Positions 180 through 64,000 of a stretch of DNA of 64,000 nt are shown here, one piece after another. The stretch lies in the NCBI RefSeq assembly GCF_011745625.1, contig NW_027191458.1:558001-622000 (forward strand), given 5' to 3'. Below the pieces are notes generated by a model. It ran no database searches. It saw only the letters and a program-made list of their open reading frames with translations, and had not been told where the DNA came from. The position numbers were made by a program, and so were the translations under genes. Position 1 is the stretch's first letter, and each line of letters starts with the position of its first letter. Origin of the DNA: Cladosporium halotolerans (lineage: Eukaryota).

Positions 180-1545
180 GCTGTCTGAGACACGCGCGGG
201 TTGACGTGCTGCCGTGTAGCGAGCGGGGGGGAGGGGGGGATGTGAGAGCGAGGAGGGGAGGATGGGCAGGCGTACTGTATGTGATGGTGATGCGTCAGGG
301 AAATACCAGGCCCCAAAGACGGCAACCCGACAGTCGACTCGCAGCGGTCCGTCAGCAGTAGTTCGCGGTTGGCGCGGTGCACACGCACGAGGACCTCGCA
401 GTGGCAGAGGCGGCGCTGGCAGCAGCTCCAACAGACGCCGTCGATCGCACGCAGGAATGCGGCGATGGCTGGCGTCGCCAGCTGCACGCAAGCGGGGCCC
501 GCGCCAGGGCGTGCACCGCCCACGATCGCCCTCCGGCTGCTCTGCCGCCCCACCACCAACCTGCCTGCCTCCATCACATCCTCCTAGGTACCTACCTACC
601 TGTAGGCTACCTGTAGGCTACCAACTCTCGCTACTCAGGAACAGCATCGCAGACCGCTCCCACAGCCACGCCAAGCCCTTGCCTCCGGTCGTGTCCAGGA
701 GCAACGGCAGAGCAACCAGGCACACGCGCACAGTACACGCACACGCGTGCAGCACCACAACGCACCCCACCCTTCACTTTCCACCGCATCCAAGCGAGCC
801 GTGAATCGCGAGATAAAATGAGCAACAGGCCGGGCCCCCTCCGTCCATCTATCAATCCACCCCTCCCTTCCCTTCCTCCCTTCCCTTCCTCCCTCCCTTC
901 CTCCCTCCCGCCCGCGTCGCACAACCAACATCACGATTACCCCGACGCAGCACAAACGCAACCTGTCATAACCCCAACCCCGGGACGCGCGCAGAGGCAG
1001 GTGTGGTGAGCATGGCAGCCCAGCGGGCCACAAGCGGCGCGCGCAACGCCCAGAACGCGGACTCGGTGCCAGCCCAGCCCGACTGCGGCTCGCCGAAAGG
1101 CGCCTCCACAGGCACTAGTAAGGTAGTAGTGGTGGTGGTAGTTTTGGGCGCAGAAGAGAGACCACCACACAGTTAGTTAGCACCAGTAGTCTCGCGAGCC
1201 CACCCACACCACACCACCGCCCGCTCCCAAGCCAGCGTGTGGTCGTCGCAGCACCACTCACTCACTATCCCATTAGCCAACCGCATCCGCCAACGCCAGC
1301 CAGCCAGCCCGGAGCTCCCCTCCCTCCTCCCCTCCCATAAGATACCTACCCAATCGCCTCGCCTCGCTCGCCTCGCCCTCGGCTGACCCGCCCGAGCACT
1401 ACTGTACACACTAGCCCCACCCACACCACCTACTGCACCCTTAGACCCAGATGCCCTGACAGCGCGCGCCCGGCCGCCCTTCCGAATAGCCCTACGCACG
1501 CACGCGAGCGCAGCAACCAACCTAGGCAACCCGAGCTCGAGGTCG

Positions 1546-1572
<27 letters not shown>
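1546..1572. repeat. (TGC)9 microsatellite, intergenic
   Basis: Perfect trinucleotide run. Confidence 0.9.
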
Positions 1573-1578
<6 letters not shown>

Positions 1579-2924: not shown

Positions 2925-3659
2925 ATGGCCCTCCGCGGCGTCGCGCCCTTCGCGACCTTCCTCATCGTCGGCCGTTCGTCCTCCCCCAAACCACCACTCC
3001 CGCTTCCAAGTCCCCGACTAACCCTCCTCCCAGCAACCTGCTTCTTCCTCGGCATCCTCTTCGCCATGTTCCCCTACGACTACAACGTCCTCTGGTCGAC
3101 ACCCCCCCTCTCGCCCCTCGCGGACCCCGCCTCCAGCCCGCGCGCGCCCTTCTTCGACCTGCAAGAAGCGCACCTCAAGTTCCTGCACGCGTCGCCGGCC
3201 CTGATCTCGCGCGTCCTGCACATCGTCATCGGCACCGGCCTGCTGGGCTTCATCATGAAGCTGTACAAGCCGTCCGAGGCCAACATGCTGTTCGACGGCG
3301 CCAGCCTGGCGCTGTACATGTGCGGCGTGGCGGTCTACGCGGCGAACATCGTCAAGGGGCTGCGGACTGTGACGGCCGGCGCGTACGGGGGCAAGGTGCT
3401 GCAGGAGGGCGAGACGCTGGTTGCGAAGGCGATGGAGGGCGAGGAGGGGGGGTTTATTGGCCGCGAGGATAGTTTGAGGGTCATGGCGGCGAGTAATACG
3501 ATTCTTGCGCTGGTGTTGGTTGGTGTGCTGGTGCTGCAGGCGGGGCAGTGGTATGCGCAGCGGAAGGAGGAGGAGGAGATCGAGGCGATGGATCGGGCGA
3601 GGGACGAGAAGAAGAGGGGGAAGGAGGGGAAGGAGGGCGGGGGGAAGAAGAAGCAGTAG
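2925..3659 (+). CDS. SHR3: ER membrane chaperone for amino-acid permeases (Shr3 family); intron 2974-3033
   Basis: Spliced N-terminus IVGPTCFFLGILF, motif KLYKPSEANMLFDGASL, four hydrophobic segments, VLVLQAGQWYA and a charged tail. Intron GTTCGT...CTAAC...CAG. Confidence 0.9.
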   Translation: MALRGVAPFATFLIVGRSSSPKPPLPLPSPRLTLLPATCFFLGILFAMFPYDYNVLWSTPPLSPLADPASSPRAPFFDLQEAHLKFLHASPALISRVLHIVIGTGLLGFIMKLYKPSEANMLFDGASLALYMCGVAVYAANIVKGLRTVTAGAYGGKVLQEGETLVAKAMEGEEGGFIGREDSLRVMAASNTILALVLVGVLVLQAGQWYAQRKEEEEIEAMDRARDEKKRGKEGKEGGGKKKQ

Positions 3660-3942
3660 GGGGTTTGGAGGAGGCGGTAATGGGCGGCGTAGTGTGGGGG
3701 GAGGATGGGGGGAGTGTAGAAAATGTTTGTATTAGATAGCCTTCATAGCGGTGGTCAAAACAGGAAAATCACACTCCAATCACTCCATGTGCTGAAGACC
3801 AAATCTCCCACGAGAACGACAAAACCAAGCCAATCCTCTCAACCTGCTTGATTAGTAACCGGCAAAAACTCCAAACACTCCATGTGCTGTGGTCCAAGTA
3901 ACCCACGAGGACGAACGAACGAACCAAATCCTCCCAACCCAC

Positions 3943-4716
3943 CTAATTCGTAATAGTCACACACTCCCACCCACCCCCTCCCAACTCCCCCAACCGCACA
4001 ACCCTCTCAAAAACCCACTCCCCCACATCCTTCCTCGCAACCGTCCACCCCAGCGCCGGCTTCCTCTCGCTCCCGAACCGCACCTTCTCCCACCCGATCC
4101 CCGCCCCACTCGTCAGCAGCGTCGCCTTCACATCCACGACGCCCCGCACCCTCTTCTCCCCACTCTCACTCACCTCCTTCCGCAGCTCCGTCTCCATCAC
4201 CGCCTTGTCCGCGTGCGGCGCGTGCAGCAACCATTTGTACAGCGGGAGATAGAGCAGCGGGACGTCGCGCGGGCAGCCGGGGGAAGGAATGCCCGTCGTC
4301 GAGACGACGATGAGGAGGGGCTTTTTCTTGCTCCCTTCCGTGGAGGCCGAGACGGCGGCGAGGATCGCGCGCGTCGCGTCCGTGCAGATGCTCGCGTCGT
4401 GCATTGCGATGGGCGCGAGCGGGTTGGGCGACAGGTAGATGGACGTGGCGCCCATGCCGCTGATGATGGTGTCGGGCGTGGGCGTGAGAGTCTGCTGCAC
4501 GGCGGAGGGGTCGCGGATGTCGCCTTGTGTTATGGTTAGGAGCCGGGATTGGGTTGCCGCGTCGATGCCCTTTGAGGCGAGCGAGTCTTGCAGTTTGCTG
4601 GCGTTGCGGGCGAGGGCGGTGCACGGGTGGTTGGCGCGCAGGGCGGCGGCGAGGGCGTGCCCGGCTGTATCGCCGGTCGCGCCGAAGAAGGCGAGTCTTT
4701 TGGGGGTGGTGGACAT
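3943..4716 (-). CDS. NAD(P)-binding Rossmann-fold oxidoreductase (atypical SDR / flavin-reductase-like)
   Basis: N-terminal FFGATGDTA, ALARNASKL, TQGDIRD and late VARKDVGEWV motifs; intronless 257 aa ORF. Confidence 0.85.
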   Translation of the reverse strand: MSTTPKRLAFFGATGDTAGHALAAALRANHPCTALARNASKLQDSLASKGIDAATQSRLLTITQGDIRDPSAVQQTLTPTPDTIISGMGATSIYLSPNPLAPIAMHDASICTDATRAILAAVSASTEGSKKKPLLIVVSTTGIPSPGCPRDVPLLYLPLYKWLLHAPHADKAVMETELRKEVSESGEKRVRGVVDVKATLLTSGAGIGWEKVRFGSERKPALGWTVARKDVGEWVFERVVRLGELGGGGWECVTITN

Positions 4717-5987: not shown

Positions 5988-8900
5988 ATGTCATACCTGC
6001 GCCCAACATGCAGCGACGCAGTAGCACGAGCCACGAACCTTAGCATCGCTAGATATATTCCCACTTTCCGCCAAAGTGACGCGCAAAGCGAGAATGCAAC
6101 CCCAACAGAGCAGGATGTCGCCCGCGAGGAGCTCCACGAAGGCGAGCGCTTGCCATCACGACGCCCTCTTGACCGCCGATGGGACGAGTCTCGCGGGCTT
6201 GTCTTCAGTCGGAAGGAAACACCCGCGAGAAATTACACTTGGACTTCGAAGCGCGGCATTGCCTTCGCGGGGAGCTTAGACCAGCGCAGAGGCTATGCAA
6301 TGCGACCGACGCGTTCGCCCATTCCTCCGAGATCTCAAGAGCACAAGGACACGCAACATCCTGCTTCGACTCCCAGCCCGACCTTTGGCGCTGGGCTGCC
6401 GTCGCTTGAACGACCAATGGCTCCCTCGCCTGCTGCGTTGGCTAGGGGTACCAAGCAAGAGCAGATGGAGAAAGAACTGTCAAGTCGGAAATCAAGGATC
6501 GATCAATTGGAAGGGGAGATCAAATACCTTGAAGATGGATACCGAGAGTTGGAAAAGCGACTCGAAGGTGACAAGACGACGTTGAGGGCGGAAATGCAAC
6601 AAGCAAATGCTGAATACGAGGCGCAGCTCAAACAGATCAGAAGCGAGGTCGAAGCGCAAATGAAAGAGGCTCAGCAATTTTTGGAAGCCAGCAAAACATG
6701 GGCGTTCAAAGAAGGCAGACAGGCTGGCGAGGAAGAAACACAGCGTACCTTGCAGGCCAGGATGCGCGATCTAGAGGCCCAGCATATGGAGATGTCTAGT
6801 GCGGTTGAGAAGGCCATTCAGGAACGGCCAAACATGCGGAAAGAACTCGAGCAAGAAGTGTTGGAACGAGAAAACAAGCTCGATAATAGGCTGGCATCAA
6901 TCAGAAGTCTTATTCAAGCTTTGAAAAGGGAAGCGTTGGCCGAGGTCGAACGCGCGCGCAAAGATTTCGACGCGGATGCGGAAAGTCGCTACCGCGACTT
7001 GAACAGCGTGAGCGTTGAAGTGAGAAGGCAAGAAAGCGATGCTCAACGAAGAATTAACGAAAGGATGAAGGAGCTCGAACTCTTGGGAGAGCGCAAGGTG
7101 CACCGATCAGACTACGTCGCTTACAGAAACCTGTTCAGTCATGTTCACGACGAAGGTTTCGCTTTCGACAAGGAGTTGAGAGAAGTGCAAATCCTGCTGG
7201 AGCAGAAGAGTTTCGCCGAGGAGAAGACTGATCAAGTGTCTGAGCCAGCGTCTGGCGACAAAGGATTGTTGGACTCTTCGAAAACGCGGGCTCTTGGCTT
7301 GAAGCGTCTCGCGAGCCAGGTCAAAGAGTTTCGCAAACACCTTTCGGCAACAGATTCGCGCCTGAAGAATGAAGCGCACATGTCTCGCCTTCAGACGTAC
7401 CAAACTCGATACACCGACATTCAATCTGCTGGTGTAGTGTTGGGCGCAGCTCTTTTCCCTGCAAGCATAAATGCTTTGAAAAGTGTCAAGGATCGCACCC
7501 TTGCACAGTATTCTGAAATCAGCCGGCAGATGGAAGTTGCTAGCAATAACACATTGCGCGAAGAATTGGCAAAACAGAGAACAGCCCTTTCTGCCGAATA
7601 TGGAGCGATAAGGAGCTCAATGAACCTCGCGTACTTGGACCGCAAAATTCAGATATACGAGACGCTGAAGCTTGAAGACTTTGCTCACAAAGCCGTATTC
7701 ATGGGCACCATTGATTTAAGGGAGGAATTCGAAAATCTACTCAACGAGCGGGATGAAGGAACGAGCTCCAAAAGCTCGAAGCCACCAGGCTTCAGGCTTG
7801 CCAATAGATTCAATCGGGAAATGGTTCGAGGTTTCCGCGTCGGACTCGAAAAGCTCGAAGCAGATATCAGAAAGAGGGCGTTCATTCAGCAGCTTCTCAA
7901 TCAACACGGGGCTGAAGAAGAGAAGCTGGATAAGGTCATTGACGAAAGGAAAGAAGACGCTCTGGAAGAGCTGGATTCGGAGAGGACGAAGCTTCTCGGG
8001 CTGCAGAAGTCAGTGCGATCTGCCGCCAAAACAATGAAGTCTCGACGTCTCCCATCAGCTCCAGATCCCAGACCGAAGGAGAATAGGATGAAGCCACTGC
8101 CTGCACAGAATGAAACCCTTACGCCGTTGGAAGAGAAGCGTTTGGAGGGTATTCGTGAGCGGTCGGCACAGCTGGATAGCATGCTGTCGGACAAGAACAA
8201 GCTCGACGATGACACTAGAGCCAGGTACAAACGCGAGAGGGCGATGCTCAGTTTGGACTGGCAAGAGCTGAACATACGCCGTGCGGCTTCAAAATTACGC
8301 GCGTGTAGAGGTGCAAAGCAACGGGCGAGATATCAAGGCCAGATTAGGAGAAGCACAGCGATCAGAAGAGAGATTCAGCAGAGACTGGGCAACCTTTCTC
8401 GACACACCTCAACTAGCAAGCCATCAGCAGGAGCCCGCCAAACGCTTGATCGCACCAACAGAGACGACTCGATGGAATCTTCGCCGAATGCCCCCAGTGA
8501 GGAAATCCGTGCCGGAAGCACGCAAAAGGAAGAGAAGACCAGGGATGCTTTTGGTTCAGTTTCGGCGCAGGATGGGAGAATGAGCCCGCCAAAGGAGGCA
8601 ACAGACACCGAGACTCAGCCCGGCGGTGCCGCGCGAATATTGGTCGACATGGTTTCCCCATCCGAAGCATCTGAGAGCGCGAAGCAGCCGCAGTCCACAG
8701 TCGATACGCAGTCATCGTCGAGGAGCGAGACGAGAAATCCAGGCTTTAGGCGTTTGAATTTCACCTCGACGGCGCCCAAGCACGCACCTCAGGATTTCTA
8801 TGCGCGTTGGAATACGCAGGAAGGCCGCTCTTGGGGTTCACCTTCGTTTCGAGAGGGCGAGGCCCCCACAGACCCGGCTGACGTTTGGTCGTCTTTCTCC

Positions 8901-10604
8901 TCATCAGCGGAGCATGATATCCTGAGTAAGCAAGAATCCGCTCCTGGTTCGGGTGAACAGGGCGATGGCCTGACCGGCGCAACTGATCCTAACGGGGTGA
9001 ATCCTCAGTTATCATCTGATCGCACCGTCAATGATGGTGCATGTGATGCTAGCACTGATGCAATGAGCGGCACCTTTACTGACGATAACGCCAAGAATTC
9101 AATGCAGGCGCCCGCATCTTCTATTTCCCCGGGAACAACAAACGTTTCGACTTCTTCCAACAACGTCGTTGCAGACATGGTTCCAGAGCCGGATGAGGAA
9201 ATCGCCCTCCTCTATGACATGCCTGCTAGTGTCAAAAGGGCTGCTTTCATGGCCTCGAGGAATTCGACCTCCCAATTCTGGAAATACAACATGTACCGTA
9301 ATGCCGCCGGGGAAGCTCCGACGCGACATTACTGCACGACATACGAACAAACAGAAGCTCAAATTGCGAAGTTCCTCGACGAAAAGGTCGTAGGCTTCGA
9401 TCTGGAGTGGGAGAAGAGTTCGAGGCCGGGCGTCGACAGCCCGAAACGCTGCGTGTCTCTGATGCAGATCGCAGCCGAAGGCAAAGTTGCTCTTTTCCAC
9501 CTCGCTGTGTTCCGTGGTGGCGATTCAGCCGAAGACCTTCTACCACCGGCTCTGCGCGCGTTCCTTGAAGACCCAAGCATCCTCAAGGTTGGTGTCAACA
9601 TCGGCGGTGACGCGACAAGGATGAAGAATTGCTTCGGCGTCGAGATGAGAGGCAACATCGAGCTCAGCCACTTGTTTCGTCTGGTCAAGTACGGCGAGAA
9701 AAGCCCTGGCAAGGTTAACAGGACGCTCGTCGCGCTGGCGGAACAGGTCAAGGAGGTCCTTCACCTGCCGCTCTCGAAGGGCAGCGTCCGCACCAGCTCG
9801 TGGTCCAAGCGCCTAGATAATGAGCAAATCGACTACGCCGTGTCTGACGCCTACGCTGGTCTTCGCCTATTCCACGAGCTGGAGAAGTCGAGGAGGGCCA
9901 TGCCCTCGAAACCTCCCAGACCCGCGTTCCAAGAACTGCGTTTGCCCATCACTCTAGGCGCGGGCATCGTCGTGCCACCAAAAGCGAAAAAGACAAAGGT
10001 CGTCCCCGAACCAGAAGAAGACCCAGCCGAAGAGCCCGAGCCCACCGCCGCCCTCGAAGAAGAACCCGACAGCGAAGAAGACTACTACGATGCCCCCGAA
10101 GACCCCTCCCTCGACTCCCAGTCCGCCGCAGCAGGCGACCCCCTGCCCGAAATCACCTACCCGACCCTCCCCACTCTCGCCTCCTCCGACTCCTCCGACC
10201 TCGACTCCGACTACAGCCTGCCCTCCGACCCCCTCGAGCCGCCGCCCTCCCACCCCCGCACAACACCCGCCCTCCCCACGCCCGAAGCCCTCGCGGCCCA
10301 AACCTGGGCCACGACCTGGCAGGCGCAGCTGCCCGCGGCCTACAACCTGCAAGTCTCGCAGCCGCACCTGCGCGCCTACCACGTCTGGCACCACCAGGGG
10401 TTTGCGCTGCAGGAGACCGCGGCGCTGCTGCGCCGGGAGCCGCCGCTGGCGCTGTCGACGGTCGTGAGCTACATTGCGGAGGTGCTGCAGAAGGAGGATC
10501 TGGAGTTCGAGCCGGCGAGGGCGCGCGAGGTGCTGGGGAGGTTGCCGGTTAGTGTTCGGGGGCGGTATGCGAGGTTGTATGCGAAGGTGCAGAGGGCGAC
10601 GTGA
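5988..10604 (+). CDS. Large protein: N-terminal coiled coil, disordered linker, WRN/EXD2-type DEDDy 3'-5' exonuclease, short C-terminal helical domain
   Basis: 1538 aa ORF; ExoI VGFDLEW, ExoII GVNIGGDAT, ExoIII YAVSDAYA, plus the S-x-W-S-x-x-L (SSWSKRL) motif of WRN-like exonucleases. Confidence 0.85.
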   Translation: MSYLRPTCSDAVARATNLSIARYIPTFRQSDAQSENATPTEQDVAREELHEGERLPSRRPLDRRWDESRGLVFSRKETPARNYTWTSKRGIAFAGSLDQRRGYAMRPTRSPIPPRSQEHKDTQHPASTPSPTFGAGLPSLERPMAPSPAALARGTKQEQMEKELSSRKSRIDQLEGEIKYLEDGYRELEKRLEGDKTTLRAEMQQANAEYEAQLKQIRSEVEAQMKEAQQFLEASKTWAFKEGRQAGEEETQRTLQARMRDLEAQHMEMSSAVEKAIQERPNMRKELEQEVLERENKLDNRLASIRSLIQALKREALAEVERARKDFDADAESRYRDLNSVSVEVRRQESDAQRRINERMKELELLGERKVHRSDYVAYRNLFSHVHDEGFAFDKELREVQILLEQKSFAEEKTDQVSEPASGDKGLLDSSKTRALGLKRLASQVKEFRKHLSATDSRLKNEAHMSRLQTYQTRYTDIQSAGVVLGAALFPASINALKSVKDRTLAQYSEISRQMEVASNNTLREELAKQRTALSAEYGAIRSSMNLAYLDRKIQIYETLKLEDFAHKAVFMGTIDLREEFENLLNERDEGTSSKSSKPPGFRLANRFNREMVRGFRVGLEKLEADIRKRAFIQQLLNQHGAEEEKLDKVIDERKEDALEELDSERTKLLGLQKSVRSAAKTMKSRRLPSAPDPRPKENRMKPLPAQNETLTPLEEKRLEGIRERSAQLDSMLSDKNKLDDDTRARYKRERAMLSLDWQELNIRRAASKLRACRGAKQRARYQGQIRRSTAIRREIQQRLGNLSRHTSTSKPSAGARQTLDRTNRDDSMESSPNAPSEEIRAGSTQKEEKTRDAFGSVSAQDGRMSPPKEATDTETQPGGAARILVDMVSPSEASESAKQPQSTVDTQSSSRSETRNPGFRRLNFTSTAPKHAPQDFYARWNTQEGRSWGSPSFREGEAPTDPADVWSSFSSSAEHDILSKQESAPGSGEQGDGLTGATDPNGVNPQLSSDRTVNDGACDASTDAMSGTFTDDNAKNSMQAPASSISPGTTNVSTSSNNVVADMVPEPDEEIALLYDMPASVKRAAFMASRNSTSQFWKYNMYRNAAGEAPTRHYCTTYEQTEAQIAKFLDEKVVGFDLEWEKSSRPGVDSPKRCVSLMQIAAEGKVALFHLAVFRGGDSAEDLLPPALRAFLEDPSILKVGVNIGGDATRMKNCFGVEMRGNIELSHLFRLVKYGEKSPGKVNRTLVALAEQVKEVLHLPLSKGSVRTSSWSKRLDNEQIDYAVSDAYAGLRLFHELEKSRRAMPSKPPRPAFQELRLPITLGAGIVVPPKAKKTKVVPEPEEDPAEEPEPTAALEEEPDSEEDYYDAPEDPSLDSQSAAAGDPLPEITYPTLPTLASSDSSDLDSDYSLPSDPLEPPPSHPRTTPALPTPEALAAQTWATTWQAQLPAAYNLQVSQPHLRAYHVWHHQGFALQETAALLRREPPLALSTVVSYIAEVLQKEDLEFEPARAREVLGRLPVSVRGRYARLYAKVQRAT

Positions 10605-10778
10605 TGGTTGGGAGGCTTGGATCTAGGAATGATATGTGGTTTCGGCTTGCGAGGATAGAATGCATTGTATAATGTATAGCATATGTCTGCGCGCGTGGGG
10701 ACCTTGCCCGGTGGACGAATGAATCATGGACATATAACTAAATCGAAAACTTCTCTACTTCACCTTCTTGCTTCAAAT

Positions 10779-12308
10779 TCACACCCGCCTCCCTCCTCCG
10801 CCTCCTCCACTACCCTCCTGACCAGCTCTAACCCCAGCCCGCTCCATGAACCCGCTAAACGTCGTCATCCGCTTGCCATCATCATCTCCTATCCGCCCCG
10901 CAAACAGACCTTGCTCGTACGCTCGCGCAGCCGGCTCTCCACGCCTGGCTTGCGCGATTGGCACGCGCGTGGGCGTGTGGTGCGAGCGAATCGGCTCCGG
11001 ATAGAGCGGCGAGGACCGAGACGTGTCCCAGGTCGAAGGCGAGGTGAGGTGGATAGGCGGAGGCGCTTTGCGCTGGTCGGGCGTGTGGGTTTGCTGCTTG
11101 GCGCGCGGTAGCAGGACTTGGATTGTTTCTGTCGTCGTGCTGGGCTGCGTGGTGGGATGGGGTTGGCTGGGAGGTGCTGCTGTTGCGGCTGCATCCCTTT
11201 CGCGTCTGAGCGAGTGGGACGATTTCTTTGAGCGCAGGGCGCGGATCGGGGCGATGGTGTAGGCGTGCGTGAGGGTGCCGCGCTTGAGGTGTGGTGGGAA
11301 GTGGGTTGGGAGGGGCGTTGGGGGTGTTTGGAAGATGGAGGAGCGGGAGAGGAAGGTGCGAGGTTTTTGTGTGCGAGATGGTGTTGCTGGGCCTGATATC
11401 GTGGCCGTGTAGCCTGCGTTGCTGTTTAAAGGGTCGATCGGGCGGGGAGGCGATGGGGTCCCACGGACAAAGTCTGTTCGGTGTGTGCTTGACGGATCAG
11501 AGACTGGTTCGGATATTGAACGAGTGTGCATTGGTGGTCGGTCTGGGTCGGCGCTTAGGCTGGTGAGTTGGTCGGCGGTGGAGAAGTGCTTTTCGCTGTC
11601 GAAATCGTAACGTCTTCTCTTTCGTCGACTGAGGCACCACATAAGGAGCGCAAAAGCTGTGATGCCGAGCAATATTCCTGGAAGAAAGCCAGCGACAAAA
11701 CTTGTGCCAGAGAAATCATTTGAAGACTGCCGCTGGACTCCATCATTGATCGGTATCCCATCGATCGAATCAGAGGTATTCGGGGCGCTTGAGGCTGGGG
11801 AAGTTGTCGCAGAGCTCGTCGCTGATGCCTCGCTTGTGGGAGTTGCTCTTGACGCGGAGCTCGTCAATGCTGGTTTTGTCGATGTAACAGGCGCTGCGGT
11901 TTTAATTTCGCACACTCCGCTATGACAAATCGCCCCAACAGGACAGCATGAATCTCCGCATTGCTCAAGAGGAATGGTCGGATCCGAATGAAGCTGATTC
12001 GTAGGGGATATTGTTGCGTTCTGGGCCGTCTGATCGCAGTTAATAGGCGACACGAACTTGCAGTCCTGACCAGCAGGGCAGCAAAGAACGACCAAGCCAG
12101 TTGACTCAAGCTGCAAGCACGTCGCAGATGCTGGACAGCAAAAGTCATCCGGGGAAGGCGTACCGCACTGGTGCAAGTCGACGTTGTTGCCGCACATGGA
12201 GGATGCTCTCTGGGTGAGGTGTGATGTAGATGGCCTGGTTGACGTTGCTTTCGAAGATTGGAATTGGGAAAGTAGAAAGATGACCGCGTTCATGGAAACG
12301 AGCGCCAT
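10779..12308 (-). CDS. Type I membrane protein: signal peptide, Cys-rich CCP module, Ser/Thr stalk, one TM helix, cytoplasmic tail (surface-sensor-like)
   Basis: MALVSMNAVIFLL; CCPASATC, CCPAGQDC, CCPVGAIC; TM FVAGFLPGILLGITAFALLMWCL then RRKRRR. Start codon inferred. Confidence 0.75.
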   Translation of the reverse strand: MALVSMNAVIFLLSQFQSSKATSTRPSTSHLTQRASSMCGNNVDLHQCGTPSPDDFCCPASATCLQLESTGLVVLCCPAGQDCKFVSPINCDQTAQNATISPTNQLHSDPTIPLEQCGDSCCPVGAICHSGVCEIKTAAPVTSTKPALTSSASRATPTSEASATSSATTSPASSAPNTSDSIDGIPINDGVQRQSSNDFSGTSFVAGFLPGILLGITAFALLMWCLSRRKRRRYDFDSEKHFSTADQLTSLSADPDRPPMHTRSISEPVSDPSSTHRTDFVRGTPSPPRPIDPLNSNAGYTATISGPATPSRTQKPRTFLSRSSIFQTPPTPLPTHFPPHLKRGTLTHAYTIAPIRALRSKKSSHSLRRERDAAATAAPPSQPHPTTQPSTTTETIQVLLPRAKQQTHTPDQRKAPPPIHLTSPSTWDTSRSSPLYPEPIRSHHTPTRVPIAQARRGEPAARAYEQGLFAGRIGDDDGKRMTTFSGFMERAGVRAGQEGSGGGGGGRRV

Positions 12309-47221: not shown

Positions 47222-47312
47222 CGTTATCGCCCCCGAAAGTTGTCGAGGTGGTTGCTCAATGTTTCATGATTTCACGTGCCTTACACGAAGCACTGAAGCG
47301 CGGACGTCATGG

Positions 47313-48533: not shown

Positions 48534-48884
48534 TGGGTGGCGTGAAGGGTGGCGTGGTTTGTTAACGTGTTCTCAGAGACTGCAGACTCTACTTTTGCTT
48601 ACGAGGTCTGGATTTACGATGGTAACATCTCTTGGAAAGCTTATGACCTGTGCAACTTCAATTTCATTGTGTCCCCGACACAAACTACGTAAAAAAGTAC
48701 CCAAAATTGGCAAAATAAAGCATAACGGAAAGGACTGACAACCATCGATCGCAATTGCAAACTCCCCAAGCATTGCTCAAGCAAAGAACTTCAAAATAGC
48801 ACACTCGTACGCTCATTGATGTTCTCTGACCGTACTCGAAGGCTGTGAAGCCTGGGCGCGTACAGTCTAATAGCTTTACCATCT

Positions 48885-53310: not shown

Positions 53311-54324
53311 GCGACGTTGACAATAACCATCGTATCGAAAACATGAGTGTGAGGTCGCAGGATAGAACTTCTGTACGACACTTTCGTCCTGAGTCAAAGG
53401 AATTCACAAGAAGGTCTACTTCGTTTAGAAAATTCTGCGGTCATCGAGGCTCGAGTAATTCGTTGCCATCACTTCCCTTGAACAATTGCGTGCAGCGTGC
53501 TTCTTCAGTGTGCGGAACGCAAGAGCTTCATCTCGTTGGTGCCATCGCAACGCTCTTTTTAATGCCGATTCCTTTCGCCACCATCCTGGGATTTGGTGGG
53601 CTCTGCAACCAGGATTGAGCGTTCTAACTCCAGGCTTGATGTCTCAATACCATCTTCGGAACCATTGTTCGTCTCAATGTCAAAACTTTTCAACTTCCAC
53701 CTTGAATATATCATGCTGCTCAGCCCGAACATCTGTGATGATGAAACGTCTTTGCAATGATTACACAACCTGATCTAATGCCTAGTCTGAAGTGCCAAGA
53801 TGTTAGGGGGCATACGTTTTCTAGGCATGGTAGCTGGCAAGTGTGTTGATTACCGATTCATCAAGTGATTGAGCGTCTCGTTACAAAAGATCATGCATGG
53901 TCGGTTCGGATAATGGATTGCGTTGCGGGAATTGGCAATCAACAGCGGGCTCAACGGCAACCGAAGCAGACATATCACATGCAATTTGTTGAGGTGTCGT
54001 CACCCCATCAGCGACCGTATGGCAGCATCAAGGGCCGCGAAAGTGCTCGAAATGAGGATAGCTTATCTCTTCATCACTCGTACAGATGATAGCTGTTGTG
54101 GGGCTCATGGAGCCGTAACCGATCAGTCGCCTTCTGGGCAAGAGTATAATGTTAACAATTCAGCTTCGGATACGAACGAGAGAAGAGGCGTCTTTAAGAG
54201 TAGACAGATGATGCTCCTGGCTTATAATCGACACGGGCCACCCATTTGAGAATTCATCGATCGATTGCTAGTGCCATTCTTGCTCTTTTTCGACTATATT
54301 CATGCGGGTACCTCATATCAAGCC

Positions 54325-55600
54325 TCAATTATGGATCTTGGCGTGCAAGCCCGGAATGATTTCTAGCTCTTTCTCGCCGTACTGGTACTTCTGTCCGTCA
54401 ATTCTGGGCGCTTTTGTGCGACGCTGCTGTTGGGACTGGCGTGCTTTCACCCATTGCTCCATGGTCAGGTGTTGACCGAGGCGTGTCAAGTCGTTTTCCT
54501 CAAGACCAAGGCGCTTCAGAAGCGGGCTGTTACTAATGGGATCAAGCACAACATGGTTGTTGGGTCTGTCATCGTCAGAAATTGGTGCTTCACGAAAATT
54601 TGAGGATGGGATCTTACCTGGCGAAGAAGAGCACCCCAAGGCGATCAATATGGGCCTGGTCGTCAGGTGGAGTATGCACACGATGGACGCTTGATTTGAA
54701 ATAGCCGCCCGTCAAAGCTTGCAGAGCATCACAGATGTTGATTGTAATTGTCTCATCCTGCGGCTTCACCCACTTCCACTGTTGCTCTGAGTTCAGAATT
54801 TGCAACGCGGCGACGGGTTGCCTGAAGAGAAGTGTAACGCTGCCAAGATCCGTGTGGCCTGGCGAATAGAGCTCACCAACTTGTTTGTTTAGTTCTGGAG
54901 AGCGAGCAGCGTAGTGCATGTAGCGGAGGTGGTCCTCGCCCTTGACATCGTACTGATGGTCTCTGACGAGTTGATCTTCATCCTCGAGCTCGAGGATAAT
55001 TGCAAACAGCCGTAGCAGTTTGACCACTACGAGTTCGTGGCATTTCCTGCTGAAGCCTTCGATCTCTTTGATGTGATCTTGAAGGACAGGAGGCTGGGCG
55101 CGCTCATGGTAGCCATCAAATTTGGGTATATTGTATACTTGCACATTGTCTTTGATGGTTTCAGTGAGCCTGATACGTTAGCCAGTGTATCTTTCACGAT
55201 GATCGAGAAAATCCACACTTACTGCCTAAGGCCAGCAGGGCGGTACCCATTGTACTCGCCGTTCTCCAAGTCCTGGAGGTTGTGATATTCCAATTTCTCC
55301 TCCAGCGGCAGGTCATAGAATTCGCGACCCAAGGCAAATTGTCGATCGACTTCCTCTTGGCTGATGCCAAAGTTTTTGACATAGAAGAATCCAACGTGTT
55401 GAGCCGCATACGTGAGCTGTTTTGCGAGTTCTACCTTGCCACCGGGCTTTTCGAAGAGACCCAGGTCGAGGGTGACAAGCTCTGCCCAATCAACTAGCAG
55501 GTCATGTCAGGAGAACATCGGTAAATTCAGAAGCGATCGGCTTACGATCAGCTTTGGTCTCTTGGACCTGCTCGTATGGGGACAGAATGGCTCCCGGCAT
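54325..55600 (-). CDS. 2-oxoglutarate/Fe(II) dioxygenase (DIOX_N + 2OG-FeII_Oxy); 3 introns
   Basis: LDWAELVTLDL, VGFFYVKNFG, GHTDLGSVTLLFRQPVAALQ, SSVHRV, RLGVLFFARP. Confidence 0.9.
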
Positions 55601-56945
55601 CCTGACTAAGCCTGATCGCTGGTCTGAGTTTCGAGTGGAACAATACGAGAATGAGGCAGAGGACAAAACTGTTCACCACGCGCCTACAACTTAAAAAAAG
55701 AACCGCTCTCGGCCATAGAGCATTGCAGAGGATATGCTGATCACGTCGACCTCCCCCGCTGTCACGCCATGCTTGGGTGCGGGCATGTCGGCAGTAGTTG
55801 ACGCTCCTTGGGCCTCACTAGCCGCATACAGGAAGATAGGCAGGTGACAGGGGCCAAGGAGATTGCTTTCGTTGCCTGTAACATGAGTGTGTCACCTTCA
55901 GATGATCTTGGGCTTTTAAGCGTCGTCGGTGAAGTGTGTATTGGGGTTGGGGGGGTCAAGGGTTAGGGTTAGGGTGACGACCCAAGTTGAAATCAGTGCC
56001 CTACTCCTATTTCGCGACTTTCATTTGCCACATCGATACGTCGTTAGGTTGTTGCTTGCCTGCAAAACCTACTGGTCAGCCTTTAATGGACTGTAAAGAT
56101 TGCAGCATTTGCGGTGGGGTTCGCGTAAGCTCAGATCAAGTACGTTTAAACCCCGGAGGAAACTCATCAAGGAAGCAGACTTTAGTGGACCGACAACAGT
56201 AAGGTAAGATGGCGACATTATTGCTATATCGCATGAGTAGTGTTCGCCGTAGGATGGATGCTCTCTTTACCGAGATCTGAGCCCTCCGCTGTGGATTCAC
56301 TCCGTCATCCGAGAGATCAGCAACCGGGAGCGCCCAATTCGCTTGACTGAGAACGTGCAGTTCTGTGCAGGAGCTAGGACCTGCACAGGGAAGGATATGT
56401 CCATCTTGGAAATTGTCGAAAGTGCTGCCACGGTTGCTTAGAAACTGGATCCCACCATTGCGCCTAGAAGCAAGTGGGAAACGCACAGTAGGTGGTTCAT
56501 GACACCCTAATTGAAAGTTTGCTTCAACAAAAGGCAGCCTGACATGTATGCGGCTTGATTCCTGTGCAGAAACAAAGTGGTTGCTGTGATTTGGGAAGCG
56601 GTCAGCGTGTATGCCATCCTAGTGGTCACGACAAAATCTTCGTGAAGGTGACAAGTATGACAACGACTTCCTCAATAACGTCCTCTGTAATGACCACCAT
56701 CCAGGCATAACACGGCGGTAGAAGCGCGAATTGTCTCCAGCGCTGTGTGCCTAGTTATTACACCGTTTTGACTCTCAAAGTTGTACGGCGATTGAACAAT
56801 AATAATTGCATGTGGCGAATACCTCTCTAACTCCGTGCATCGGCGCATCGTCCTGCGCATCTTCAGTCCAAGCGTTCCCATTCGAAATTCTTTCAGTAAT
56901 CATACATTTCCCCGTTTCCCCCTTTCATCCATCTAAATTCGCTCC

Positions 56946-57397
56946 TCAGTGGCTTAGCGTATTCCTCCCCCGCAGCGTCCTCCTCTTCAAGATCTTCCTC
57001 CCGTTCCTTGACCTCACTCTTGAGAGAAAGCCGTGCCTCCGCTTTCTGACGCGGTGTGAAGGGTCGTACGTGTCTCTCTTTGCGCCGCGCACCTGGAGCA
57101 GCGAAGAGCCGGGCTGGTATGGGAGCTGGAAGGATGCGGTGGGGATGTCGGCGGCGATGGCGCTTGTTGCGGTCGAGGGGGCGACGGTCGGTCTTGAAGG
57201 AAGGGACGAGAGCACGCCATAAGATCTGTGAAGGTGTGTGTGAGCTGCGAAGGTCTTGCGATTCTGGATTGGTGCGGAAGGCCGTACCTGGTTGCTTGGA
57301 TGGGAGCAAATGTCTGGCGAGCCATCTGAGGCCCCACCGGTCGAAGGCTTGAGGCCGCAGGCGCAAAAGCGCTCCGCAGGCAGCGTAGGCTGAACAT
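56946..57397 (-). CDS. MRPL34: Mitochondrial ribosomal protein bL34m; intron 57226-57287
   Basis: Presequence MFSLRCLRSAF; C-terminal KRDTYDPSHRVRKRRHGFLSRVRSRNGRKILKRR...GRNTLSH. Confidence 0.92.
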
Positions 57398-57671
57398 TGT
57401 GTGTATTTGTGATGTGACGCTCTCTTCCGCCACCTGTAGTCGCCCAAAGACGTCGTTGCAGTCCAGCCAGCCAACGGAGGTTTGCGGACTTCGCGTCCCA
57501 AAGCGGCAACCCAGAAAGATCGACGCACGCTCGGCCAATCGTCGCCGAGCGCAAAGCGAGCTTCACTTCTCTACCTCCAAAATTTCCCCAGCCCAGCATT
57601 GAACTCTCTCATTGCAGCGAAGCGTAGAAGCACTCTTCACTGTCCACCACCCAAGCAGAAACACTGCGAAA

Positions 57672-58274
57672 ATGGCCTCCCGCACCGCCTACCCACCAAT
57701 GCACACGCCCAGCGCCCCGCGCAGCCTGGCTCCCGCAACCGCCGAATCGCACCTCACAACCTTCCTCACACAATCCCGGACCAAACCCTCCTACCACCCA
57801 GATGCCCTGCTCTCGAGCACCGGCATCCAATTCTCCGCACACTCTGGCCCGAACGGCGGACTCGCGCTGCACCACCTGCAGCGAATCGCGGCGGGGCTGC
57901 GCGGCGAGAACCTCGTGCAGGAGACGCAGGAGGAGCTGGAAGCCGTGTACGGCGAGGAGATGCGGGCGGCGGGCACGCTGCGGGGGGACGATGCGAGGCT
58001 GGACGGCGCGATTGAGAGGACTTCGAAGAGGGGGAGGAGCCAGGAGCGTGTGAGGGAGTGGGAGGATGGGGGCGCGTTTGCGGCGGCGCAGGAGGTTGTT
58101 GAGGGCGAGGTGGGGGATCGCGAGGGCGCGGAAGTAGTGCAGCAGGGAGGCGCGCCGCCGGCGGTCGAGAGCCATGGGGGCAAGGTGGATGCGGCGACGA
58201 GGAAGGCGGCGAAGAAGCAGAGGAGGCTGGCGCAGCTGAAGGAGAAGGAGGAGGAGAAGGCGAGGAAGGAGTGA
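57672..58274 (+). CDS. Probable RNA polymerase I subunit A14/Ker1-like protein
   Basis: Two-helix core AESHLTTFL and LHHLQRIAAGLRG resembling A14-family helices; Lys/Glu-rich tail. Confidence 0.55.
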   Translation: MASRTAYPPMHTPSAPRSLAPATAESHLTTFLTQSRTKPSYHPDALLSSTGIQFSAHSGPNGGLALHHLQRIAAGLRGENLVQETQEELEAVYGEEMRAAGTLRGDDARLDGAIERTSKRGRSQERVREWEDGGAFAAAQEVVEGEVGDREGAEVVQQGGAPPAVESHGGKVDAATRKAAKKQRRLAQLKEKEEEKARKE

Positions 58275-58499
58275 GTTTGGGGCGGGATGGGATTGATATT
58301 CGACACATCGACAGTGGCCTTCGAGGACATGGGACAACTGCATCCGACCATATTATCTCCACATTCACTGGTCAGCAGCACGCCCACTTAATGGTGGGAC
58401 GCCGGTCATGTGCGAAACTACGCACTATTCGAGCGCGGCAAGAAACTAAAAATACACTGCGCCGGGCTTTCGACGACAGAACTACAGGCTACAGAAGTT

Positions 58500-59923: not shown

Positions 59924-60641
59924 GGTTGCGGACTGGACTCTGTCGAGCTCTGTGTACTGAGATGGATGGATCAAGGGATCAAGGGATACATGAACAGACA
60001 CGTAGGACTTGAAAGTCGCGAGACAATCAAGCTCAAGCCCCACATACCTTGGCAATTCGGGGTCTTGTTTCACATGCAAGGGAGCGACTCCGGTGACGAT
60101 CCTTGGGTGAAAGAGACGGCGGAACACTGTCTAGCAAACACACGTCGCGATATCTCTCGAAGCATGGCTCCGGCAGTACATGCTCGCGACGCCTGTAGCT
60201 CTGCCAGACATCCTCTCGACCCGCCATTGCCTCTTGGCGCCTCGGCCGGCAGAGGTGCAGCGCGTACGGGGCCAATCAAGGGGCGCGCGCTGTGTTGCGG
60301 CTGACGTAGGTTCGCTGCTTGCTGCTGTTGCCGCCGCCAACAGGTCACCGACCGCTGCCGCCGCCATCTTGGGCCGCATCTCACAGGCCACGCAGTAGAT
60401 AGTCTGCAGTCCAGTACGTAGCCGAGCAAATTCCAGCCATATCTCATTGTCAGTCCGCAGACGTCCAGTTTTCCGTCTTGACGTTTTCGCTGCTCCTCCG
60501 ACATCCCACTCCTGAAGACCCCGCCTTCGCGCAAAGGATCAACACTACTGCCTGCCTGCGCCGCACACGTACAGGTCCGCCGCTGCGACTGGGGTGCTCT
60601 GTCTGGCACGCGGCTCCGCGCAAAAGCACAGCACACACAGC

Positions 60642-63600
60642 ATGCCTGACGAGCTGTTCCTCAATCCGGGTGACGGCGCCAACAACAGCGAGCCAACTCC
60701 CCAGCCTCTCCGGATAAACAAGCAGGGCTCGCCGCAGCCTTCCGACCATCCAACTGAGCAATGGGCGGCCTATAACGTTCCCCCGTCAAGCAGTGCCGCA
60801 GCATACGGCGCCCCGACGTCACCGCCGCCCAACGGACCTTTGCCCTACCCAGACGAGAGGACGAGAAGATACGACTACCCAGCACCAGACGGCAGGGTTC
60901 CTAGGACAGACACACCAACCGGGGCAGAGGAAGGAAGAGCGCAGAATACGAGACCGCGCAAAGCAAGCATGAGCTCTGACAACTCCTCTGGAGCGGGCAG
61001 TGGGGATGGCCACCGTAGAAGACCGCGGTTCGATGCGAACGACCCCAACCGACCGACTCTGGGAGGATATGCCAGTTCTACTCCGAGGTTGGCCGAGAGG
61101 CGAGGCACTCCTGCTAAGGGCATTCTCCCCGAGAGTCCAGGTGGGCCAGAGCTCCCGGACAAGGACGAGGATGAGGGCCTTTTCCAACGCGCTCCCAGGA
61201 AGCAGAGCGAAGGCTCCCAACAACAGCCGCAGCAGGACTATCAGCAACAGTTCTATCCACCACCGCTCGGATCCACTGCACCTCCCGCCCCGCAGCAGCA
61301 TTTGCACATCCCGAACCCTTCTGGCGTCAATCGGCTCAGTAGTACCGCCTCGAACGCCACTACACGAGCTTCTCGCGGCTCGCCACCTCCACCTGAAACA
61401 CCTATTGACCCTTCGGGTGGACCCTCTGGGCTGGGAGATATCGAAGCGCGATACGCAGCATCTGGAATTCCAGGAACGAACACTCTCAACGAGATGCAAG
61501 CTCAGAGTGCGGCCGCGGCAGCACGGCGGGCCCAATATGGGAGCCCGGCGCCGATGCGAGGGACGCCACAACCTCAAGCTCAATCACAAGCACAGCCGAG
61601 CGGCAGGTGGAGCCCCACAGAGCGACCGGAGAATACTCCTCATGGACCACCAGTCACTTTCCAAGGAGTAGAAGAGGTTGGGTCTAGCGGCGCTGGTGTT
61701 CCCAGCCAGACCAACGGAAGACAGCCGAGCTATTCTGCCCCAGGTGCAAGCCCTGATGGTCAACTCGGTTCTGACATGAATCGCATGAACCTGAACGATG
61801 AGCCCCCGCCAGCCTACTCTCCCCCTGTTGCTGGCACTGCAGCCTCGCAATACCCTAATGAGAAGGGGAGATACGGAAACGCGTCCCCACAGAGCAACGC
61901 TCAAGCAGGAGCTTCGTCGCAACCGAACAGGCAACACCCGGCCTTTGCGAACGACCCTGTACCTGTACAAGATCCGAGTCCTCAGCCAGGCCCTTCGCAG
62001 TCAAACGCACCGCAAGGCATGACTCCGATAAACGTACAACAGGCTAATAAGTCGCCCTCTCCAGGCGCCTCCGGACAAGGACCTTCAAGTCCGCCGCCAC
62101 TGCCTGAAGGCTGGATTGCTCACCTTGACAGCAACTCTGGCCAATATTATTACATCCACCTTCCGACACAGAGCACTCAGTGGGAATTCCCCAAGGGCCC
62201 GACTCCATTGAATCTTCAGGAGCCCATGTCTCCAGTTGGCACCTACCAGAATCCACTGGCTTCGCCTTCTGCATCCATGTTCAAGCAGCCACTTGCATCG
62301 CCGGGCTTCGGTCCAGTACCGCAGACGGCCAATTATGATCGTACAAGCATGATGAGCATGGCTTCCGTTGCATCTCCTACTGCTGCAGGCTTCACCGGTC
62401 CGCCACCTAGCGCAGGTGTCGATATGTACAAGATCGCACCGACAAACAGCGTCTACTTTGGTCCTTACCTCCGTTACACTAACATGGATCTAGAACGTGG
62501 GTTGTGGCTAGGCAGCATTATGCTGGTCACAGACGTAGCGCAGCCTCCATCCATCCACATCCATCAGTCTACCGATCTGTCTCCGAATCCAAGGCAGCTC
62601 AAAGCTCACCCCATTCATTCGCATCAACGCTGGACGTTCTATCGCTATGATATTGACCTTCGTATGGAAGATCAGCCGGCTAAATGGACGTACGCCATCA
62701 CTTCTCATCTCGGGTGCACTCGTTACGAGTTTTTGGTTGCTGCACGCCACGAGCAAAGCTGGCGTTTCATCGCACATTCAGGCAACGACTTCGCTATCAA
62801 CGTGAGTGCCAATGACCGCGCGAAGCTGGGAGGCATTAGCCCAATGTGGAAGGACGTCCTTCTGAAGCATCAGGAATGCGGCGGCTTTCACACACAAATC
62901 GGGCTGGGTGGTCAAATCTACGCAGACAGGCTTTGGAAAGACATTCCCGCCCTCAGACAATGGACGCAAATGAGTGGCAAAGAGAACCGAAAGAACGCTC
63001 AGTGGACGGCTAAAATGGATGAGGATGCCACGCACGCTTACTTCCATTACTATACCTCCCACTTCGACCAGCCTGCCATTCGCGAAGCGTTTGCTCAGAT
63101 CCCTCACGTCTGCTGTCTCGACGACCATGACATCTTCGACGGATTCGGAAGTTACCCAGAATACATGCAGCAGAGCCACGTCATCAAGAATGTTGGTCGG
63201 ATCGGTATTGAGATGTACCTCCTCTTCCAGCACCACACGACCTTCGAGATTCTCCGCGCTGTATCAAACGACATCGACCTCTTCACCATCACCGGCCAAG
63301 GATGGCACTTTGTCAAGTATCTCGGCCCTAGCGTGGTCGTCGTTGGACCAGACACTCGCAGCGAGAAGACCACCAACCAAGTCCTGGCCGGCCCGACATA
63401 CCAAGGCATCTTCCCGAAGGTCGCAGTGCTTCCTCCAAGCGTCCAACATTGCATTTGGCTACTACCTGTGCCTGTCATCTACCCTCGGCTTGAAACCATG
63501 GAACATGTGGCCAGCGCTGCTGCTACGGGCAAGAAGGTCGTTACAGGCGGCTTCAACGCGATTGGCAGGCTTGCGGGTGGCGTGGCTGGCGTCGTCGGTG

Positions 63601-64000
63601 CCAAAGGGGTGGTAAACTCCGGTTTCGACGGGGTCAAGAAAGCCATCGGCAAGTCTGGCTTGATGCAGGGCGTGCTGAGTCCGTTCGGCGAGGTCGAAGT
63701 GCTCGACGAGCTGCGTGACATGTGGACGCACGAAAGCAAGGTAAGCGCTCTCCCATTCCTCAAAACTATCTCCTAGAGACACCCGGCCGCTAACAAAAAC
63801 CCAACCAGGACCTCGAACGCACCTACCTCATCCGCACCCTCCAAGGCATCTCGCACAACAAATCCATCCGCATGACCTTCCTCTCCGGCAGCGTCAACGC
63901 CTGCGGCGCCGGCCTCGTGCACGACCCGGCGCACCCCTCCGACCACAAGACCATGTACCAGCTGATCACGGCGCCCATCGTCAACGCCCCGCTGTCCAGC
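60642..64000 (+). CDS. WW-domain plus PhoD-like metallophosphatase-fold protein, truncated by window end; intron 63741-63808
   Basis: WW LPEGWIAHLD...YYYIH...TQWEFP; GGQIYADRLW, DDHDIFDGFGSY, GPDTRSE, PVIYPRL. Confidence 0.85.

Follow-up and report, generated by a model that had tools for sequence, protein, structure and literature searches.

Kilobase-scale GC-skew domains in a 64-kb window of Cladosporium halotolerans are probably anchored to genes

Introduction

A 64-kb stretch of the Cladosporium halotolerans genome (contig NW_027191458.1, positions 558,001 to 622,000; here called the window and numbered from its first letter) contains kilobase-scale GC-rich domains in which the top strand is rich in C and A on the left and in G and T on the right. 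An earlier note on this DNA listed 16 such domains and stated that their polarity ignores gene orientation. It interpreted each centre as a fixed site of a bidirectional, strand-asymmetric process such as a replication start, and knew of no description of this kind in fungi. The locus therefore raises the question of whether the domains are autonomous features of the chromosome or belong to the genes that lie within them. We consider it probable (roughly 0.7) that each domain corresponds to a transcription unit or, where the unit is long, to roughly its last kilobase, and that the pattern is gene-anchored, already known and mutational in origin.

Results

Top-strand GC skew was profiled in 200-bp windows, and changes of sign were called after 300-bp smoothing with a threshold of ±0.25. 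In these profiles, the skew climbs repeatedly from about −0.5 or −0.7 to +0.5 or +0.8 within about 1 kb and falls back in AT-richer DNA. The window contains 22 upward (negative to positive) and 23 downward switches, corresponding to about one upward switch per 2.9 kb. The kilobase-scale domains of the earlier list are real: exactly one upward switch lies in each of the 15 that are fully contained in the window (1576, 3278, 4282, 10408, 10962, 18487, 22367, 23089, 25018, 25933, 27862, 28970, 30936, 38214 and 57885). The sixteenth, from about 63760, runs beyond the end of the window, and the counts cover 15. Outside the list are six extra upward switches with a GC content of at least 0.54, at 13799, 38982, 43332, 44278, 57051 and 34899 (the last very broad), and a seventh at 17635 with a local GC content of 0.49.

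The median GC content is 0.66 at upward switches and 0.52 at downward switches, with exceptions at 5 of the 23 downward switches (410, 15626, 21217, 57424 and 60183), where it is at least 0.60. A sawtooth shape, with a gradual centre and abrupt edges, was considered as a sign of fixed boundary sites and rejected because the two kinds of switch hardly differ in sharpness (median width of 205 bp for upward and 289 bp for downward switches). The skew signal itself is far beyond chance. The standard deviation of the 200-bp skew is 0.254, compared with at most 0.171 in 100 shuffles within 1-kb blocks, and the correlation between skew slope and GC content, a statistic that is symmetric with respect to strand, is +0.38 (z = +6.9 relative to block shuffles).

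A profile that is first C-rich and then G-rich is its own reverse complement. Thus, genes on the plus and minus strands that are C-rich at the 5′ end and G-rich at the 3′ end of the sense strand look identical on the top strand, and a fixed polarity is what a strictly gene-oriented rule predicts rather than evidence for a process blind to orientation. To read the skew on the sense strand, we compared its value around the stop codon (−200 to +100) with that at −900 to −400 in 21 genes. The skew is higher around the stop in 18 of them (8 of 8 plus-strand and 10 of 13 minus-strand genes; Wilcoxon p = 4e-5), contrary to the statement that polarity ignores gene orientation. In the mean profile anchored at the stop codon, the sense skew is −0.23 to −0.28 at −900 to −600, crosses zero near −300, reaches +0.39 in the final 100 nt of the coding sequence (CDS) and is +0.26 in the 100 nt after the stop, after which it collapses; in each of these last two intervals it is positive in 18 of the 21 genes. 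The T/A skew over all sites is roughly flat in the same profile. At the other end of the gene, seven short genes average a sense skew of −0.44 over the 100 nt preceding the ATG.

The switches themselves follow the genes. Fifteen of the 22 upward switches sit 102–530 nt upstream of a stop codon, in genes that range from 244 to 1538 codons. The switch points are anchored to gene 3′ ends, which does not support fixed sites of their own, and distance to the transcript end comes close to accounting for the switch points, an outcome that the earlier note had itself named as speaking against its interpretation. The upstream part of every unit is C(A)-rich on the sense strand, the composition turns G(T)-rich about 100–500 nt ahead of the stop codon, and the G-rich zone extends about 100 nt into the 3′ untranslated region (UTR), the limits of the UTR being judged from distance to the stop.

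The same gradient is present at sites that do not affect the protein. In short genes rich in GC at third codon positions (GC3), fourfold-degenerate (4-fold) sites have a GC skew that goes from between −0.58 and −0.96 in the first quarter to between +0.66 and +1.00 in the last quarter (the SHR3, NmrA-like, HIT, GNAT and pyridoxal phosphate (PLP) enzyme genes). When the first and last 100 codons of six short genes are pooled, the 4-fold sites contain 257 C, 62 G, 45 A and 26 T in the first set and 34 C, 209 G, 6 A and 45 T in the last (Fisher tests: G versus C, p = 1e-59; T versus A, p = 9e-9). Silent sites in the 3′ zone (G>>T>C>A) and in the 5′ zone (C>>A,G>T) have exactly complementary compositions. 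The codon flips reported earlier are borne out in the same pooled sets: from first to last, Leu CTC goes from 53 to 0 and TTG from 3 to 24, Arg CGC from 25 to 3 and AGG from 0 to 24, and Gly GGG from 3 to 55. Rather than disappearing at silent sites and in introns, which the earlier note had named as a refuting outcome, the skew persists in both and is strongest there.

Intron coordinates were taken from spliced RNA contigs. In C zones, the GC skews of five introns range from −0.58 to −1.00, one of these introns containing 29 C and no G, and one intron in a G zone, internal to the RSN1 gene, has a skew of +0.67. The strongest skews are found in the HIT and GNAT genes, both of which have low depth in two RNA runs; the Logan RNA contigs used here carry no strand and their depth reflects expression poorly, which makes the comparison a qualitative one. 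Codon or translational selection was rejected on the grounds that introns have the skew too and that the most skewed genes are of low depth.

Amino-acid usage follows the base composition. Proline, threonine, serine and histidine are enriched in the first 100 codons and glycine, glutamate, valine and tryptophan in the last 100, with first/last counts of 68/15 for P, 55/18 for T, 31/85 for G, 16/69 for E and 21/61 for V. Most likely, the cause is mutational, strand-asymmetric and linked to the ends of transcription units, and is not selection on codons or proteins. Of the earlier interpretation, what stands is a strand-asymmetric, non-selective signal; blindness to orientation, fixed centres, replication starts and novelty in fungi are not supported.

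Long genes show that the units are not simply whole genes. Their bodies have a GC3 of about 0.5–0.6 and no skew, and the last ~1 kb is a GC3-rich island (0.74–0.93) consisting of a C zone followed by a G zone. Silent sites pooled by distance from the stop over 11 genes are G at a frequency of 0.61–0.68 in the last 100 codons and C at 0.55–0.65 between 300 and 100 codons before the stop; beyond 350 codons from the stop, all four bases lie at 0.18–0.29. Over all islands, GC3 is 0.74–0.98 compared with about 0.5–0.6 in the bodies of long genes, a local rise in silent-site GC such as hotspots of GC-biased gene conversion (gBGC) have.

Four such islands end genes on both strands. At 9850–10604 (+), with its switch at 10408, lies the 3′-terminal island of a 1538-codon gene (CDS 5988–10601) with an exonuclease domain identified by Pfam, in which GC3 is 0.87 in the last eighth and 0.55–0.69 upstream. 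The island at 10779–11500 (−; switch at 10962) terminates a 541-codon open reading frame (ORF; 10782–12404) with no Pfam family. A Zn(2)-Cys(6) transcription-factor gene (CDS 18257–20683; Pfam Zn_clus and Fungal_trans_2) carries an island at 18254–19400 (−; switch at 18487); its GC3 is 0.90–0.93 in the last three eighths versus 0.50–0.69 upstream, and its 4-fold skews in those last three eighths are −0.75, −0.77 and +0.27. The fourth island, at 43745–44900 (−; switch at 44278), was outside the earlier list and belongs to a MutS-family gene (CDS 43748–47221; Pfam MutS I–V), whose last three eighths have a GC3 of 0.74–0.88 and 4-fold skews of −0.44, −0.30 and +0.38.

The RSN1/PHM7-type channel gene (28785–31750, −; Pfam RSN1_TM, PHM7_cyt, RSN1_7TM and PHM7_ext) contains two units, with switches at 28970 and 30936. 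They are parted by a cluster of short introns, with five CT..AC joints in RNA contigs, and both long exons shift from C-biased to G-biased at 4-fold sites. The intron at 30465–30536 is the G/T-rich one noted above (skew +0.67).

The intensity of the pattern was compared among lineages using the HIT-family gene (25463–26371, −; switch at 25933), the most extreme unit in the window, with a 4-fold skew of −0.96 to +1.00; its family is assigned from named homologues. In the encoded protein, the N-terminal third has a G/C index of −0.51 and the C-terminal third one of +0.49, and a relative matching at 96% has the same values. Organisms related at 96–99% share 40–72% of the window's sequence words, and for one protein the closest named relatives are Cladosporium species. 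Among homologues P0002–P0061, which are mostly Cladosporium-like, the mean index is −0.03/+0.15; it is −0.38/+0.20 in C. fusiforme, −0.4 to −0.66/+0.3 to +0.47 in orthologues from black Aspergilli, and near 0 in fish and other distant orthologues. The black-Aspergillus proteins (P0062, P0066, P0067, P0069, P0072 and P0074) are rich in T/P/H/L/S in the N-terminal part and in G/E/V/R in the C-terminal part, like the protein in the window, and most Cladosporium-like orthologues do not have this composition. In the alignment, columns with E/D/V/G/K in the N-terminal part have become T/P/H/L/S/Q, and P/S/Q/K in the C-terminal part have become G/E/V/R. Judged from these sequences, the shared composition looks like convergent drift in unrelated lineages.

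The HIT protein is only ~50% identical to its Cladosporium orthologues, so silent sites in the relatives' DNA are saturated. The orthologous DNA at nine Cladosporium-like metagenome loci has a GC3 of 0.54–0.62 and a weak gradient, with 4-fold skews of −0.08 to −0.58 in the first 100 codons and −0.24 to +0.40 in the last 100. The slope–GC statistic was compared over 47 loci of at least 6 kb. Six Cladosporium-like loci have values of +0.27 to +0.65, many other fungal loci lie at about +0.2 to +0.34, and values of about 0 occur in some others as well as in the three loci with the highest GC content (0.62–0.73), which we took to be bacterial. In skew amplitude, the window exceeds the other loci in this comparison. 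Long ORFs of relatives have a G bias in the terminal 50 codons only (+0.22 in 8 ORFs and +0.13 in 21 ORFs). On the sequences compared, skew intensity is specific to the lineage.

Discussion

Opposite skews at the two ends of fungal genes have been described before, contrary to the expectation of novelty. McLean and Tirosh (2011; BMC Genomics 12:638, PMC3315797) found in about 60 fungi, including filamentous species, a coding-strand bias toward C at the 5′ end of genes and toward G at their 3′ end. In their data, the skew reaches 4-fold sites, amino-acid usage and untranslated flanks, is visible in single genes, has a positive peak around the stop codon and correlates only very weakly with expression. 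Their three-line model places the strongest negative skew at the promoter, the skew is negatively related to GC content, and the change in A/T is minor. The cause was left open between a mutational hypothesis and an adaptive one based on CTP limitation. We found no later extension of fungal intragenic skew in the literature after 2011, subscription journals being outside the coverage.

The window, which comes from a GC-rich filamentous ascomycete, is an extreme, GC3-coupled instance of this published pattern. As in the 2011 study, the sense-strand bias goes from C at the 5′ end to G at the 3′ end in genes of both orientations (18 of 21), the bias is present at 4-fold sites (C 257/G 62 to G 209/C 34), amino-acid usage differs between the two ends of the protein, the skew reaches the flanks (−0.44 before the ATG in seven short genes and +0.26 after the stop), and the all-site T/A skew is roughly flat. 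However, the amplitude at 4-fold sites of single genes, about −0.9 to +1.0, is far larger, T versus A flips at these sites, and four long genes have almost no 5′ ramp but a ~1-kb 3′ island with a GC3 of 0.74–0.93. The three-line model describes the seven short genes but not the four long ones, in what is a small sample. The study of McLean and Tirosh covered neither introns nor any Cladosporium; here, introns share the skew. What the window adds to that work is thus the far larger amplitude, the silent-site T/A flip and the ~1-kb GC3 islands at the 3′ ends of long genes, together with the second RSN1 unit at an internal intron cluster and the lineage-specific intensity.

Two other reports describe parts of the pattern. 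Fujimori et al. (2005; BMC Genomics 6:26, PMC555766) reported an excess of C over G at transcription starts in plants and some fungi, which matches the C-rich sense strand at the starts of the short genes here (−0.44 before the ATG); in the accessible part of that paper, the signal is a peak at the start site only, with no 3′ G-rich zone, silent-site analysis or kilobase gradient. Ginno et al. (2013; Genome Res 23:1590, PMC3787257), in the part of their paper available, describe terminal positive GC skew in closely spaced human genes and tie it to 3′ R-loops and termination. The likeness lies in a positive sense skew at the 3′ ends of closely arranged genes in a gene-dense setting. Judged from the same part, the differences are that human 5′ ends are G-skewed and those here C-skewed, and that the zone here lies mostly inside the CDS and is known from sequence alone.

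The complementary silent-site composition of the two zones points to a single process that works on opposite strands. With its G>>T>C>A composition, the enriched strand resembles one that spends time single-stranded, on which C could become T by deamination, A could become G, and C could become G through uracil excision followed by insertion of C opposite the abasic site. Exposure would fall on the non-template strand over the last ~300 nt and on the template strand upstream of that. Our preferred source of this exposure is co-transcriptional: a paused or terminating polymerase and sense R-loops may act at the 3′ end, and antisense transcripts of ~1 kb may start at the 3′ nucleosome-free region and end upstream, where their R-loops would expose the template strand. 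Since G-rich RNA favours R-loops, the process could reinforce itself. The sign arguments allow co-transcriptional exposure, breaks in gene-end nucleosome-free regions with resection and, formally, origins. We prefer the first because it can place the C zone inside long genes, which the break model cannot, and because terminal skew together with 3′ R-loops has been reported for closely spaced human genes in the available part of PMC3787257. R-loops are a live candidate for the mechanism; the specific combination of R-loops and antisense transcripts is a tentative proposal to which we would give somewhat less than even odds.

A bolder formulation, which we regard as doubtful, is that the discrete ~1-kb GC3-rich islands at gene 3′ ends are produced by one very strong strand-specific process acting on opposite strands on either side of a switch about 100–500 nt before the stop, with the silent signature G>>T>C>A on the exposed strand. 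This process would be turned on and off between lineages and, where active, would rewrite protein termini rapidly, convergently and non-adaptively, as in HIT here and in black Aspergilli. If this were true, the islands would be a fungal counterpart of mammalian biased-substitution hotspots, with a strand polarity pointing to paired sense and antisense R-loops.

Several points weigh against a gene-anchored, mutational reading of the domains or against the mechanism proposed for it: (i) The sample is small, 64 kb and about 21 genes. (ii) Three of the 21 genes (arrestin-like, 2OG oxygenase and mitochondrial L34) have no rise in sense skew toward the stop. (iii) In the four long genes with a known start, the mean skew around the ATG is only −0.05 to −0.20, and the 4-fold skew at the 5′ end of four long genes is 0.00 to −0.22. 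(iv) The C zone of long genes lies directly upstream of the G zone, inside the 3′-anchored island, which a simple model of an initiation phase and a termination phase does not predict. (v) The second C-to-G unit in RSN1 ends at an internal intron cluster and not at a terminator. (vi) The region 39000–57000 has a lower GC content (~0.50–0.55) and weak skews, and its short genes for dienelactone hydrolase, tropomyosin, Nop25 and 2OG oxygenase are without a strong pattern; skew intensity thus varies regionally within 64 kb. (vii) Antisense transcripts and R-loops are inferred here throughout, as the RNA contigs are strandless. (viii) The role given to abasic-site bypass is taken from work in yeast.

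Among the alternatives, the one that fares best, though unlikely, invokes double-strand breaks that arise in the AT-rich nucleosome-free regions at either end of a gene and are then resected. Damage to the 3′ overhang (C>T, C>G and A>G) would generate the skew, heteroduplex repair would raise GC, and opposing gradients would meet in short genes. This accounts for the sign, since the overhang left of a boundary is the top strand, which is G/T-rich there, and right of it the bottom strand. Zones of 0.3–1 kb are also of the order of yeast meiotic resection tracts, the downward switches do lie in AT-richer DNA (median GC 0.52), and the AT-richer intron cluster within RSN1 likewise resets the pattern. 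Long genes are the difficulty. Their C zone lies 300–1000 nt before the stop with no AT-rich boundary 5′ of it (e.g., 9850–10300, GC 0.57–0.73), and their promoter-adjacent 5′ ends are barely skewed. Moreover, many of the strongest boundaries are convergent 3′–3′ gaps (138–290 nt), a class of region that is poor in breaks in budding yeast.

Quite unlikely, in our view, is the reading that treats the GC-rich centres as autonomous sites, fixed and unrelated to gene structure, of a bidirectional, strand-asymmetric process such as a replication start or a recombination hotspot with GC-biased repair. Bacterial origins have a replication-linked switch in GC and TA skew from C/A-rich to G/T-rich, and the units resemble them in switching from C-rich (left) to G-rich (right) and in the joint enrichment of G and T on one strand. 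They differ in being ~1 kb long rather than replicons, in numbering 22 switches in 64 kb and in being anchored to stop codons. One upward switch per ~2.9 kb excludes replicons, and replication origins are ruled out by this density, which is far too great for the replication starts that had been suggested. The hotspot version draws on GC peaking at the switch (median 0.66), on the self-contained ~1-kb islands that long genes carry in place of 5′ and 3′ ramps, on the internal unit in RSN1, on the 400–2300 unit without a recognisable gene, and on an intensity that, as at hotspots, is specific to locus and lineage. Exonic hotspots are known in Zymoseptoria, also a Dothideomycete, where 1435 of 2578 recombination hotspots are exonic and gBGC is reported to be extremely weak or absent, according to the accessible part of that work. 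The latter finding weakens GC-biased conversion as the source of the GC3 rise, despite the many exonic hotspots, and symmetric gBGC yields no skew in any case. The position of 15 of the 22 switches at 102–530 nt upstream of stops also counts against centres independent of genes. A double-strand break at the island centre with 5′–3′ resection should leave the top strand exposed to its left and the bottom strand to its right, which would give the opposite polarity; this candidate is ruled out on sign, by reasoning only.

Selection, whether on the transcript or on the act of transcription, is very unlikely. It could favour terminal G for R-loop-assisted termination, avoidance of C to tune polymerase speed (McLean and Tirosh), or a C/A-rich 5′ part that keeps the mRNA unstructured. 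Genes in the window are tightly packed and often convergent, to the point that an RNA contig from ATP12 passes the stop codon of HIT on the opposite strand. In the available part of PMC3787257, terminal GC skew and 3′ R-loops are found preferentially in closely arranged human genes, and the adaptive CTP hypothesis was set out by McLean and Tirosh (PMC3315797). A needed function would be expected to act more uniformly, however, and the effect is weak in a third of the window, nearly absent from the orthologues of the same gene in close relatives, and strongest in genes of low depth. Amino acids are rewritten at alignment columns that are otherwise conserved, and the CTP idea does not predict that T and A flip together with C and G at silent sites. 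An assembly or sequencing artefact is negligible as an explanation, as frames supported by Pfam continue unbroken through the islands and two spliced RNA runs supply independent contigs that match the window at ≥99% (56 of 61 and 63 of 78), with contigs of two other runs matching at 95–99%.

The cause of the opposite 5′ and 3′ skews in fungi has been open since 2011, and the signal here is so strong, with silent sites almost purely C at one end and G at the other, that mechanisms could be tested gene by gene. The features that deserve a genome-wide look are the 3′-anchored GC3 islands, the silent-site T/A flip, the participation of introns and the lineage-specific convergent rewriting of protein ends. 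The bias alters amino acids at gene ends and inflates divergence (~50% identity for HIT), and it confounds analyses of codon usage and selection. Skew gradients can help to delimit transcription units in unannotated fungal DNA, but the gradient alone cannot give their orientation because the pattern is symmetric under reverse complementation. More generally, any pattern that equals its own reverse complement will always seem blind to gene orientation.

Genes and transcripts of the window

The gene identities and strands assigned previously are upheld, by Pfam for SHR3 (+), GST_C (+), GNAT (−) and PALP/cysteine-synthase-like (−) and by named homologues for HIT (−). The SHR3 gene (2925–3659, +; switch at 3278; Pfam SHR3_chaperone, 3.3e-65) has a 4-fold GC skew of −0.70 to +0.83 and faces an NAD(P)H-binding (NmrA-like) gene (3943–4716, −; switch at 4282; Pfam NAD_binding_10) with a sense 4-fold skew of −0.58 to +0.93; both are whole-gene units. 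A Far-17a/AIG1-like gene (21600–22546, +; switch at 22367), recognised by Pfam and covered by spliced RNA contigs, has introns at 21727–21780, 21843–21898 and 22092–22150 with GC skews of −0.58, −0.85 and −1.00, respectively. The third of these introns has alternative joints, 22091>22151, or 22091>22159 with seven other letters between. Next to it is the PLP-dependent (cysteine-synthase-like) gene (22700–23930, −; switch at 23089; Pfam PALP, 1.4e-73), with a 4-fold skew of −0.83 to +0.66 and an intron at 23698–23755 whose joint is present in RNA contigs and whose skew is −0.93.

The ATP12 chaperone gene (24117–25331, +; switch at 25018; Pfam ATP12) has a 4-fold skew of −0.41 to +0.44, and the GNAT acetyltransferase gene (27514–28257, −; switch at 27862; Pfam Acetyltransf_1) one of −0.76 to +0.83. 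Between the HIT and GNAT genes, the DNA at 26500–27300 is AT-richer (GC 0.41–0.46) and has almost no RNA contig depth. The GST-like unit at 37540–38450 (+; switch at 38214) has a weak match to Pfam GST_C_2 (5.5e-05). At 57600–58390, a unit with its switch at 57885 contains overlapping ORFs on both strands and no Pfam family.

The earlier note mentioned non-coding DNA among the places with this polarity. The unit at 400–2300 (switch at 1576) contains no gene recognisable by Pfam, with none of its 11 ORFs of at least 110 amino acids having a Pfam match, but a non-coding status is not borne out for it. Its sequence includes a (CTG)n run at 1546–1573, a run of about 13 G at 1673–1690 and a CT-rich low-complexity tract at 840–910.

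Four convergent gene pairs have 138–290 nt between their stop codons (25328–25466, 3656–3946, 10601–10782 and 22543–22703). The RNA contig that extends from ATP12 past the HIT stop codon covers 24159–25482, so the 3′ ends of the two transcripts probably overlap. In two other RNA runs, X15 and X16, C/G interchanges make up 21 of 112 and 16 of 68 differences from the window, respectively. With most silent sites here being C or G and the changes unpolarised, they were counted for no mechanism. The greatest RNA contig depth (~120–590) in the 20 kb compared is at 15300–17400, where the ORFs (16045–17070, +, and others) have no Pfam family, and the highly covered gene near 16.6 kb has alternative joints 16590>16825 and 16697>16824.

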